From an uncultured Candidatus Saccharibacteria bacterium (GTDB lineage Bacteria; Patescibacteriota; Minisyncoccia; Phycocordibacterales; CAIZLB01), in assembly GCA_964620475.1 (NCBI GenBank), contig CAZUJN010000001.1:4651-68650 (forward strand): a stretch of DNA of 64,000 nucleotides, read 5' to 3'. A program made the position numbers and the translations under genes. This document shows positions 8,741 to 12,955 of this stretch, piece after piece. Each line of letters begins with the position of its first letter. The first letter of the stretch is position 1. The notes beneath the pieces are model-generated. The model worked only from the letters and a program-made list of their open reading frames with translations. It did no database searches and had not been told where the DNA came from.

Positions 8741-11700
8741 TTATGTCAACTCTAAAGCAAGCCTTGACATCTTTTCATAACCTTCAGGTGCCATATTATA
8801 AACAAAATTTTCAACCTTTATACCTCCTCTTATATTTTGTCCAGCTGAAAATATTTTATATTTTCTCTTAAAATCTTCAAAAGATATTAGTTGTCCATTA
8901 TCATAAGCCACTTCTGCAAAATCTCTAAATGCCTTTATGGCATCACCGCCATTTTGTAGTATCCAATATTCTACACCTATACCACCAAGTCCACCTTGTT
9001 GACCATTTTCTCCTAAGCCTTTTTTATAGCACCCAGCTTCTTTAAGTTTTTTCTTAGCAAATCTTATATTTGTAAGCACATCTAACAGTTTTTCTCTGCC
9101 ATAAATCCTCTCTATCGAGTTATACTTTTCATGAAGACCACTATGAGCATCGAAGGTTGCAGAGTCAGATTTTTTGACGAAACCTATATCTACCGTCATC
9201 TTATGACCATCCATCTCTAATTCTTTAGATCTAAACATTCTCATGCCCTTATTTTCATAAGAATCATTCTTTTCAAATATTGATTCGATGCCAATTATAA
9301 GATTATTCACCTTACTCCAATCCTTATCATCTAATTTAACAGCAAAATCAAAGTCAAACTTTTCATCCAAAGCCGAACCTCTTCCTGTTGATCCTGTATC
9401 GGTTATAATAGCCCCAAGTAAACTATCATCATATTCTCCTTTATGGAATAAAATATTATTTTCCTCTAGTAATGATTTTATCTTATCTATTAACTTATCT
9501 TTGACTCTGGTAATAGACTCTATATTTCCTTCAGTTTGTTTAGATTCTAATATTTTTTCATGTTTTTTCCATTCATCAGATAAAGATATAACTTCTTTTG
9601 ACTTACGTGTTCCGGCAAAAGTTTTCTTATATCTATTAAAATCATCCAAGGTGAATGTAACTTTACCTTCTGCATTACATATTGGTATATAAAAACCTTT
9701 TTGAGCTATGAAATATTTTACATTTTCAAACCCCTCACCATCTATACATATAGCATCTATATTAGTGGAGCCGAAACCTGTTCTTATTCCATAATGTTTA
9801 TTATTAATAACTCCGGTTTTAAATATATCTAATTCATCTTTTTTAAATTGTTCTTTCTGCTTTAATATCAAATACATATCACCATAACCCGTAAAACCCT
9901 CTTTCAATGCTTCACTTTCAAATATAGATAAATCAGTATCAAAAGGGGTTGAATCACTAGATTTTGCAGTTGATTTTGCATTATCGGTTTCAGCACCAAT
10001 GAACTCAGGAGAATAAACACCTTTATCCAGATAAGTATCTATAAAATTAGAAGAGATACCTTTAATCATATCACCCTGTTTTATTTTTATAACACCTTGA
10101 CTTGAATTTAATATATTTCTTTGATGAGCATTTTGCTTATATTCATCCATCTTTTGCAAAGCTTGTTCAACTGAACCTATATCAACCCTTCTTAAAAAAG
10201 CCTGTTCAAACCTAGAAATAATATCTGAGCCTTCTTTTACACCAAAGGCTTGAGATATGGATTCCAATTCTGACTTTAGAGTGTTATCGGACAAATTATC
10301 TTCTATCTCTAAACTATATCTACCTATATGGCCAGATAATACATTAATTTTCTTTATGAAAAATTTAATCTTTTGTCTTTCTTCATCCGAAACAGATTCA
10401 CCTGATTGAAAGCGTGATATAACAGACCTATTTTCAGATAAAAATTGTAAATATGAATACAGGTTTTCATCGCAACTGGCTATATGTGATCTTAATAAAT
10501 CTTTAAATATAATCAATCTTCTCTTTGAATTATCTTTAACGTTTTTCAAAGATTCAACCTTTGATCTATTCACACCAAAGTCTAATTCTTTATCACCATA
10601 CATCAATTCAAAAACTTTATACTGTTTACCCACAAGAGGTATATTGTTAGACAGAAATATTTGTTCTATACCACCCAAAACCTTCTTTGCTTCTTCGATA
10701 TTTTTATATTTAGCTAGCATTGGTATTATCTGATCAGATAAATTTTTCAATTCAGCCGACTGTGATTCAGTCATAATCTTAAATAAATCAATATATCTTT
10801 GCTGTTCAGGAGTGAATGAAAAATCTTTCGAGTTTAAAAGATCTAGAGGACAAGACTGTATTGCTGAATTAAATAGATTATTCAAATCTTCTTCATCAAA
10901 AACATCAGAATATTTATTTCTTATAAAATATATATTAATCACACACCGTAAAGGTTCTTTTACGATTATAATATTTAAGGCCGATCTCTTTTGTTGTTTA
11001 TCTAAAGTAAATTCATATTCTTCTGTGAGGATATTTGGGTAACAATTTAAAACATTATTAAACATAATATTTTCTTCATCTTTAGAAAGTACTATACCTT
11101 TTTCAGATAAAACCTTAGAAACATAATTAAAATTTATGAATGAATTATTTATTATATTATAATTATTATTCATAATACCTTTTTTGATATCACCAATATC
11201 AAAAGTTTCTAAACCCCTAGATGTATTATTTCCAAAAGCTTTATTGGACAAGGTAATCAAGTCAATATCTTTATCTGAATTAACCCAATCAGAATAATCC
11301 TTGATTTTTTGTAAATAATCTTCAGAAGAACCCATTACTCTAATATTTTCATGTATATCTAATCTATTAATAATATCAATAAACCACTTATAATCATTCC
11401 CAAAACTTTTATATACAGTTTTAGATATTGACCTTATCTCATTGAAATTTATATAGATTTTATCTTTAAAACCTTTGAATATATCTATAAATATATTGAA
11501 CTCTGTTTCGCTCAAAGTGTTCAATTCATCAAGATAATATTCGAGATTTTTGTAGCCTAAACCCTCTAAAGAGTCTATCTTATAGATTAAATCATGATTA
11601 AATTTATCGATTTTCTTCAATTCATACGAATTAGTCATTCTAATATAACCCTTTTTGACTAGATAAATTAATAAATCTATTTTATTACCATCTAATGTAT

Positions 11701-12751
11701 TAAATGTTTCAAATACCTTATCATAAGAAAGATTATTGAGTGAATAATTTTTATTTACGAACTCTTCTTTTATTAAATCCTGCAAACGTATATCATAATT
11801 TGATATTTTATTCACAAATAAAATAAAATCATTAATTTTTACTTCTCTAATATTCTTAAAAAAGACTTGCGCTTTGATCAGATTCTCTTCATTTATAATT
11901 TTTACCAAATCTTTTAAATAGTAAAAATCATTGTTCTCGAACTTAAATTTTATATATTTATTATTTATTAATATTTTCAATTGTTCTGATGATATATCGT
12001 CTAGATTGTATAGACTAAATTCATTCATTTCTCTATATACACCAGATTTATCAATAATCCTTATTTTTTCAATAGTATTTTCATCCACTCTATCAAAATT
12101 AAAAGTATGACGTATATCAATTTTCATCAGACATTCTAGAGAGATATTATTTTTTTTATTAAAAGAGTAAATTTGATTAGTTTTTTTTATTAAATCTTCT
12201 ACACTATAAAAATATTTTAATTCCCTTTGTTTGGAAGAAACCATCTTTAACAATTTCGCACCCTCATCATTTAACGGAAACTCAGCAAAATGTACCCCCC
12301 ACAAGTTATGAGATACCTTTTTCTTCTCAAACTCAGCTCTTAAATCTTCTTTGTTTTCTATATCCAAATTATCCAATATAAACTCAATTGTCTTAACCTT
12401 TTTTCTGTTTTCACCAAATCTATCACTATATGATTCAATAGTACTATTTATTCCTTTAGCTACACCCTCTAAAACCCTCTCTCCAAGTTTTTTTAACCTA
12501 TCTTTAAAATTCAGAGTATCTTTTTTTATAAGATCAAATTCACGCTCATACCCTCTTTTCTCTTCTTCGGATAGGTTTTCATCATTCAACAATGACTCGA
12601 TCTTCTGATTTGTTCCCTCTATATCATCAATAGTATTTTCCAAACCTATCACTGACTCATGTAGACGATTATTTATCACATCAGAAGCTACCTCTTTTTC
12701 GGTATCATTTATTCCTGTCTCATTTTTAATTATATCTCTTTCATCCTTCAT
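8741..12751 (-). CDS. Giant (1336 aa) mostly low-complexity K/E/N/I-rich protein with C-terminal polymerase-beta-superfamily nucleotidyltransferase domain
   Basis: C-terminal region has hG[GS]...D.D motif (IITDTGSTGRGSALDEKFDFDFAV) and downstream third-Asp strand (KMTVDIGFV), followed by a helical domain (GGLGGIGVEYWILQNGGD). Confidence 0.6.
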   Translation of the reverse strand: MKDERDIIKNETGINDTEKEVASDVINNRLHESVIGLENTIDDIEGTNQKIESLLNDENLSEEEKRGYEREFDLIKKDTLNFKDRLKKLGERVLEGVAKGINSTIESYSDRFGENRKKVKTIEFILDNLDIENKEDLRAEFEKKKVSHNLWGVHFAEFPLNDEGAKLLKMVSSKQRELKYFYSVEDLIKKTNQIYSFNKKNNISLECLMKIDIRHTFNFDRVDENTIEKIRIIDKSGVYREMNEFSLYNLDDISSEQLKILINNKYIKFKFENNDFYYLKDLVKIINEENLIKAQVFFKNIREVKINDFILFVNKISNYDIRLQDLIKEEFVNKNYSLNNLSYDKVFETFNTLDGNKIDLLIYLVKKGYIRMTNSYELKKIDKFNHDLIYKIDSLEGLGYKNLEYYLDELNTLSETEFNIFIDIFKGFKDKIYINFNEIRSISKTVYKSFGNDYKWFIDIINRLDIHENIRVMGSSEDYLQKIKDYSDWVNSDKDIDLITLSNKAFGNNTSRGLETFDIGDIKKGIMNNNYNIINNSFINFNYVSKVLSEKGIVLSKDEENIMFNNVLNCYPNILTEEYEFTLDKQQKRSALNIIIVKEPLRCVINIYFIRNKYSDVFDEEDLNNLFNSAIQSCPLDLLNSKDFSFTPEQQRYIDLFKIMTESQSAELKNLSDQIIPMLAKYKNIEEAKKVLGGIEQIFLSNNIPLVGKQYKVFELMYGDKELDFGVNRSKVESLKNVKDNSKRRLIIFKDLLRSHIASCDENLYSYLQFLSENRSVISRFQSGESVSDEERQKIKFFIKKINVLSGHIGRYSLEIEDNLSDNTLKSELESISQAFGVKEGSDIISRFEQAFLRRVDIGSVEQALQKMDEYKQNAHQRNILNSSQGVIKIKQGDMIKGISSNFIDTYLDKGVYSPEFIGAETDNAKSTAKSSDSTPFDTDLSIFESEALKEGFTGYGDMYLILKQKEQFKKDELDIFKTGVINNKHYGIRTGFGSTNIDAICIDGEGFENVKYFIAQKGFYIPICNAEGKVTFTLDDFNRYKKTFAGTRKSKEVISLSDEWKKHEKILESKQTEGNIESITRVKDKLIDKIKSLLEENNILFHKGEYDDSLLGAIITDTGSTGRGSALDEKFDFDFAVKLDDKDWSKVNNLIIGIESIFEKNDSYENKGMRMFRSKELEMDGHKMTVDIGFVKKSDSATFDAHSGLHEKYNSIERIYGREKLLDVLTNIRFAKKKLKEAGCYKKGLGENGQQGGLGGIGVEYWILQNGGDAIKAFRDFAEVAYDNGQLISFEDFKRKYKIFSAGQNIRGGIKVENFVYNMAPEGYEKMSRLALELT

Positions 12752-12955
12752 TTATTTGTTTAAATTAGATCTTATCTTTTTAAGCTTATTTAATTCTATA
12801 CTTTTTCTTATCCTATTTAGTAAACTGACTTGACGAGACCTTAAAACCCCGATATCAACCCTGAGATCTTTCAATAATATTGATATTTTATCAAACTCTA
12901 AATTCATATATTTATATATACATATTATCATATTTGTTAATAAAAATTGATTCAC
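12752..12955 (-). CDS. Small hypothetical protein (67 aa) immediately upstream of, and abutting, the giant NTase gene
   Basis: ORF ends 1 nt before the giant gene start; no recognisable motif; may be a spurious AT-rich ORF. Confidence 0.2.
   Translation of the reverse strand: MNQFLLTNMIICIYKYMNLEFDKISILLKDLRVDIGVLRSRQVSLLNRIRKSIELNKLKKIRSNLNK

Follow-up and report, generated by a model that had tools for sequence, protein, structure and literature searches.

The window analysed here is a 64-kb stretch of Saccharibacteria DNA. One of its open reading frames (ORFs), an unbroken one at 8741..12751 on the minus strand, encodes a protein of 1336 aa plus stop. The ORF listing identifies it as a real gene, overlapping ORFs in the other frames all being ≤134 aa, and an identical 1336-aa NCBI protein (P0222) is found among the cluster listings. 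The predicted parts of this giant protein and the adjacent small ORF are as follows.

8741..12751, minus strand: giant protein, whole ORF (1336 aa + stop), member of a large uncharacterised family
12752..12907, minus strand: small basic helical ORF, 51 aa from a conserved ATG, 67 aa from a GTG at 12955
12416..12751, minus strand: N-terminal segment, residues 1-112; 1-43 disordered, acidic/basic; ~26-112 predicted long helices
10805..12415, minus strand: helical array, residues 113-649; ~35 predicted short alpha-helices, alpha-solenoid-like
10892..12154, minus strand: hypervariable segment, residues ~200-620; 22-31% protein identity to strain L001
10097..10804, minus strand: conserved helical domain, first part of the core, residues 650-885; P705, K709 and L735 invariant
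9602..10096, minus strand: ADP-ribosyltransferase (ART)-like alpha/beta domain (Tpt1/KptA C-lobe, DarT fold), residues 886-1050, by structural comparison
9932..9958, minus strand: motif SDSTPFDTD (family consensus SDxTPxDTD), residues 932-940, ART-like domain
9776..9796, minus strand: motif HYGIRTG, residues 986-992, ART-like domain
9437..9601, minus strand: helical linker from the ART-like domain to the nucleotidyltransferase (NTase), residues 1051-1105, from the model
9152..9436, minus strand: predicted NTase catalytic palm, residues 1106-1200; G1120, S1121, R1124, D1133, D1135, R1174 and D1188 invariant
8744..9151, minus strand: predicted NTase helical "neck", residues 1201-1336; K1233, Y1242, K1243, GGLGG1253-1257 and E1261 invariant

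An initial annotation had described the protein as rich in K, E, N and I, and the residue percentages agree (K 10.9, I 10.2, E 8.8, L 8.8 and N 8.3%); this richness is the amino-acid bias of a genome of ~30% GC. It had also called the N-terminus low-complexity and repetitive, a description we reject for the protein as a whole, given a Shannon entropy of 3.7–3.9 bits per 100 residues and the lack of any internal repeat in a self-BLASTP comparison (E ≤ 10). Neither the protein nor its parts matched Pfam, NCBIfam, PADLOC or PHROGs, and phmmer and profile searches of the PDB, run with the whole protein as well as with its C-terminal 460 aa, middle domain and NTase domain, returned sub-threshold chance matches only. 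A promoter and terminator scan of the locus, where the DNA is AT-rich, performed no better than on shuffled sequence.

The TAA of the small ORF directly abuts the ATG of the giant gene, as had been annotated for its 67-aa version (12752-12955). An ORF of ~50 aa overlaps or abuts the start of the gene in nine CPR-type loci and is absent from Bacilli-type loci. Apart from this ORF in CPR lineages, all-versus-all clustering of flanking ORFs (79 loci) and batch Pfam and PADLOC scans of 148 neighbours, in which 130 Pfam families occurred with none present in more than three, revealed no neighbour family conserved across 43–79 loci. Conserved operon partners were therefore rejected, and the neighbourhood conservation that had been put forward for checking is not there. 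Beyond the closest clade the surroundings of the gene show no conservation; neighbours are heterogeneous and often housekeeping genes, the context is not a defence island, and the neighbours in the window include translation and RNA-modification genes (RluD-like, TruB, L19). Elsewhere the window encodes a VirB4/TraG-like ATPase. The giant protein itself gave no DUF1814/AbiEii HMM match of the MenAT/AbiE-like type II toxin-antitoxin kind.

Two candidate active sites in a conserved core

The initial annotation had singled out the last ~300 residues; the conserved unit is the whole C-terminal ~690 aa (residues ~650-1336), common to all members of a large family that had gone unnoticed. The AlphaFold (AF2) model of this core (pLDDT 86, pTM 0.87) suggests one compact unit in which a helical domain is followed by an ADP-ribosyltransferase-fold domain and then by a template-independent nucleotidyltransferase of two domains. 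When residue conservation was scored over 65 relatives, both candidate active sites proved invariant across the family (65/65).

In the NTase, the motif GSTGRGSALDEKFDFDF occupies residues 1120-1136 (window 9344-9394) and the third-Asp strand KMTVDIGFVKK residues 1184-1194 (window 9170-9202), followed by the helical domain. GS1120-1121, D1133-F-D1135-F and D1188 are invariant in all 65 relatives, so the complete NTase signature reported initially stands. The hG[GS] and [DE]h[DE]h patterns and the third carboxylate of the pol-beta superfamily are all present and the alpha/beta palm superposes on known members, which supports a C-terminal pol-beta-type NTase that is catalytically complete by its signature and is followed by a helical domain. 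In structural comparison, its fold matches the bipartite CCA / Cid1 / PAP / CD-NTase / OAS group, as the initial annotation had proposed while allowing that the triad might be lacking or the domain be a well-known enzyme; the triad is present and the domain is not such an enzyme.

Among these folds, the one that the modelled NTase resembles most is the archaeal class I CCA-adding enzyme (AfCCA; PDB 1r89, 3ovs, 4x4n) in its head and neck, with an alignment covering 214 of 436 target residues. Both proteins have the same head (palm) and helical neck and share a catalytic pattern of GS, a carboxylate pair two residues apart and a third carboxylate ~50 residues later, D1133/D1135/D1188 being spaced like E59/D61/D110 of AfCCA (PMC3925840). 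Identity in the structural alignment is only 13–15%, with no sequence-profile match, and no tRNA nucleotidyltransferase model of Pfam or NCBIfam and no PDB profile matched. Unlike AfCCA, the giant protein ends at the neck (residue 1336) and has no body or tail to bind a tRNA minihelix, carries ~1100 extra N-terminal residues including the ART-fold domain, and is bacterial, patchily distributed and fast-evolving. The non-canonical poly(A)/(U) polymerases (Cid1, TUT4, TUT7, GLD-2, CutA) provide a second point of comparison as template-free enzymes that add nucleotides to RNA 3' ends; this group is, however, eukaryotic, has other accessory domains and is unrelated at the sequence level, and no PAP-associated-domain Pfam match was found in the giant protein. 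Since CD-NTases, OAS and small-molecule NTases share the two-domain fold, the fold does not prove a nucleic-acid substrate.

The first ~1000 residues had been said to hold no recognisable domain, which is true by sequence, but in the model residues ~886-1050 have the split beta-sheet of an ART fold. This second enzyme-like domain, overlooked initially, is as conserved as the NTase: K897, E916, D933, T935, T939, D940, H986 and Y1021 are invariant in 65 of 65 relatives. Its first strand has an invariant Lys in GDxxKG, where Tpt1 has HGT. The ART folds closest to it belong to enzymes that act as transferases on nucleic acids, not to NADases, and 7yw4_A (a 120-residue chain) aligns over 104 residues with this middle domain only. 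The domain carries an invariant polar-residue set suggestive of an active site but has no sequence-level similarity to Tpt1/KptA (NAD+-binding C-lobe) or DarT, and in isolation it matched no ART HMM, PDB sequence or Pfam family.

In the domain, none of the motifs H-H-h, H-Y-E and R-S-E is recognisable in its standard order, and the invariant K897, E916, D933, D940, H986 and Y1021 do not map obviously to the motif in PMC8120803. Also absent before the domain is the N-terminal winged-helix RNA lobe of Tpt1 (R-H-R of the R-H-R-R tetrad), which carries three of the four Tpt1 catalytic residues (PMC8120803); residues 650-885, at this position, are all-helical with no Tpt1 match. Given that no such motif is recognisable and that the RNA lobe is lacking, the ART-like domain may bind a ligand rather than catalyse ADP-ribosyl transfer. 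In a further difference from DarT, the protein is not accompanied by a DarG or NADAR antitoxin partner, neither a DarG macrodomain nor NADAR being found in the window or in the top 25 listed Pfam families among neighbours of 43 loci.

Family distribution and strain divergence

Homologues were gathered with a C-terminal-part query, profiles and exhaustive HMMER searches, yielding ~840 clusters (50% identity) at E ≤ 1e-3 and 546 at E ≤ 1e-30. Hosts are CPR/Patescibacteria and gut Firmicutes-type MAGs, with enrichment in CPR and reduced-genome MAGs, and one member lies in the chromosome of a spore-forming Firmicute (GerA neighbour). The distribution is patchy, with at least 143 loci among 185,579 species genomes (a pattern-limited lower bound). 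Most of 79 genome loci contain an ORF of 1300–1700 aa with the module at its C-terminus; because hundreds of proteins keep this architecture, calling it non-standard was misleading. The family has no name or model in Pfam, NCBIfam, PADLOC or PHROG or in any source, and a Pfam scan of 38 full-length members detected no domain. It is chromosomal and lacks consistent mobile-element neighbours; a phage origin was rejected, as the 2.9 million viral contigs of IMG/VR contain no relatives. A tandem paralogue in locus L081 was likewise considered and rejected. Literature searches returned nothing specific on the family or on an ART-NTase fusion, and we came across no published protein in which a class I CCA/Cid1-like polymerase is joined to a Tpt1/DarT-like ART fold.

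The N-terminal half behaves differently from the core. It appears helical, as annotated, but the coiled coil also annotated there is confined at most to residues ~26-112, the only coiled-coil-like part of the protein (low confidence). No structural relatives were found for the N-terminal alpha-helical array (~650 aa), and residues 113-649 are homologous only within the closest Patescibacteria clade. Against strain L001, flanking genes are 94–100% identical (RNR and L19, 100%), whereas the giant protein is 65% identical overall, ~75–80% over residues 1-112 and ~25–31% over residues 200-600. Nucleotide identity falls from ~95–100% in the flanks to 55–66% over 10801-12300 and recovers at ~13200; the hypervariable segment (10892..12154) has no BLASTN match to L001, and window positions 10001-12000 are the lowest-GC stretch of the region (25%). 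Over the variable part, the protein of the window resembles that of L001 no more than it does the related proteins P0080-84; in the core it is 90% identical to L001 versus ~57% to P0080-84. The N-terminal array may consist of ancient alleles that have diverged deeply and been exchanged between strains otherwise nearly identical, a pattern that would make the protein part of a biological conflict. The hypervariability could instead reflect relaxed constraint together with recombination.

A possible role at RNA ends

We infer, tentatively and at somewhat less than even confidence, that the giant protein is an RNA-end-modifying conflict protein with two enzymes. It would be cytoplasmic, its core acting on nucleic-acid ends, most likely the 3' ends of RNA or tRNA, with the ART-like domain using NAD+ to strip off or mark a phosphate or base at the terminus and the NTase adding nucleotides to the 3'-OH. 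The N-terminal ~650-residue helical array would serve target recognition or regulation. The form we favour is a single polypeptide that unites sensor and effector and alters RNA ends in defence or abortive infection; only slightly behind it we place the repair of RNA ends as a counter-defence. The ~50-aa helical protein that is translationally coupled to it in CPR lineages could be its regulator or inhibitor. Tpt1-Thg1 operons offer a precedent for pairing Tpt1 with an RNA-end polymerase (PMC8120803), and KptA for an RNA-end-healing logic (PMC9503650).

It is improbable, in our estimate, that the protein is instead a cGAS/DncV-like (CD-NTase) or OAS-like signalling enzyme and forms a one-protein CBASS-like system, its N-terminal region sensing an invader, its NTase making a (cyclic) oligonucleotide second messenger and its ART-like domain acting in cis as an NAD+-consuming effector or ligand sensor. 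A variable N-terminus and strain-level divergence would suit an immune sensor, and a sub-threshold profile match aligns OAS2 with the GS...D.D loop (E 0.82). Structural scores for the CD-NTases of CBASS (CdnC/D/E/G, DncV) and for OAS/cGAS are nevertheless lower than for CCA and RNA-tailing enzymes, the protein is ~4 times larger than CD-NTases, and its nearest ART folds are not those of NADases. The CBASS lead of the initial annotation gained no specific support either: PADLOC gave no family and Pfam no CD-NTase match even at E ≤ 1, and there is no conserved effector or Cap2/Cap3/HORMA neighbour nor any CBASS effector or regulatory gene nearby.

We give a similarly small chance to a delivered effector, toxin or polyvalent-protein-like weapon, injected into a host bacterium or competitor to AMPylate or ADP-ribosylate its proteins or nucleic acids, with the small upstream protein as chaperone or immunity factor. 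The source organism is a member of Saccharibacteria, whose cultured members are epibiotic parasites according to PMC8080830, and the enrichment in CPR and reduced-genome MAGs, the hypervariability together with a small partner gene and the VirB4/TraG-like ATPase of the window all fit such a role. Polyvalent and polymorphic toxin proteins likewise contain ARTs and pol-beta NTases, and polyvalent proteins are also very large and multidomain, combining these two with uncharacterised helical regions in a conflict setting (PMC5512222). They are defined, however, as encoded by phages, plasmids or ICEs with T4SS or virion genes, and their NTase is a minimal one fused to ArdC-N, an architecture different from the full head-plus-neck NTase seen here (PMC5512222). 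Neither ArdC nor any other Pfam domain occurs in the 38 scanned members, and the contexts are chromosomal and heterogeneous; the family is not consistently beside T4SS genes, is absent from viral contigs and extends to a spore-forming Firmicute. Moreover, the charged, disordered N-terminus has no hydrophobic stretch resembling a signal peptide, no domain linked to secretion or trafficking was detected, and a conserved enzymatic C-terminus behind a variable N-terminal and central part reverses the layout of polymorphic toxins as given in PMC3482391.

Least probable is a housekeeping RNA-maturation enzyme combining bacterial class I-type CCA addition or tRNA 3'-end repair with a 2'-phosphotransferase-like healing domain. 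In its favour, the 3' CCA is not encoded in three (Ser-cga, His and tmRNA) of the window's five tRNA/tmRNA genes, so that CCA-adding activity is needed, the gene sits among translation and RNA-modification genes, and Tpt1-Thg1 operons set a precedent. A search of the 64 kb for class II CCA-enzyme motifs came up empty, which says nothing about the genome as a whole. Against this reading, the distribution is patchy, the gene lies as a divergence island beside 99–100% conserved housekeeping genes, as an essential maturation enzyme would not, its neighbourhoods are not otherwise conserved, no tRNA-binding body and tail domains follow the neck, and there is no sequence-level similarity to tRNA nucleotidyltransferase families.

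Returning to the RNA-end-modifying conflict protein, a more far-reaching version, to which we assign perhaps one chance in a handful, is that the family forms an undescribed class of single-polypeptide conflict enzymes in which a hypervariable sensor of the alpha-solenoid type governs a core with two active sites that acts on RNA or tRNA ends, ADP-ribosylating (or NAD+-dependently dephosphorylating) and nucleotidylating them. If so, translation would be switched off or restored during attack by phages, mobile elements or competitors, and the family would be a bacterial branch of polymerases that resemble class I CCA-adding enzymes. Were both domains to work on one and the same RNA end, they would edit RNA ends in a new way, whether by damage or by healing. 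Such a role would also explain what one of the largest genes of streamlined CPR genomes does. The superfamilies from which the two candidate active sites come hold a central place in RNA repair, in toxin-antitoxin systems and in antiviral immunity. With its sharp borders, the divergence island that sets apart otherwise nearly identical Saccharibacteria strains turns the N-terminal region into a natural experiment in the evolution of specificity.

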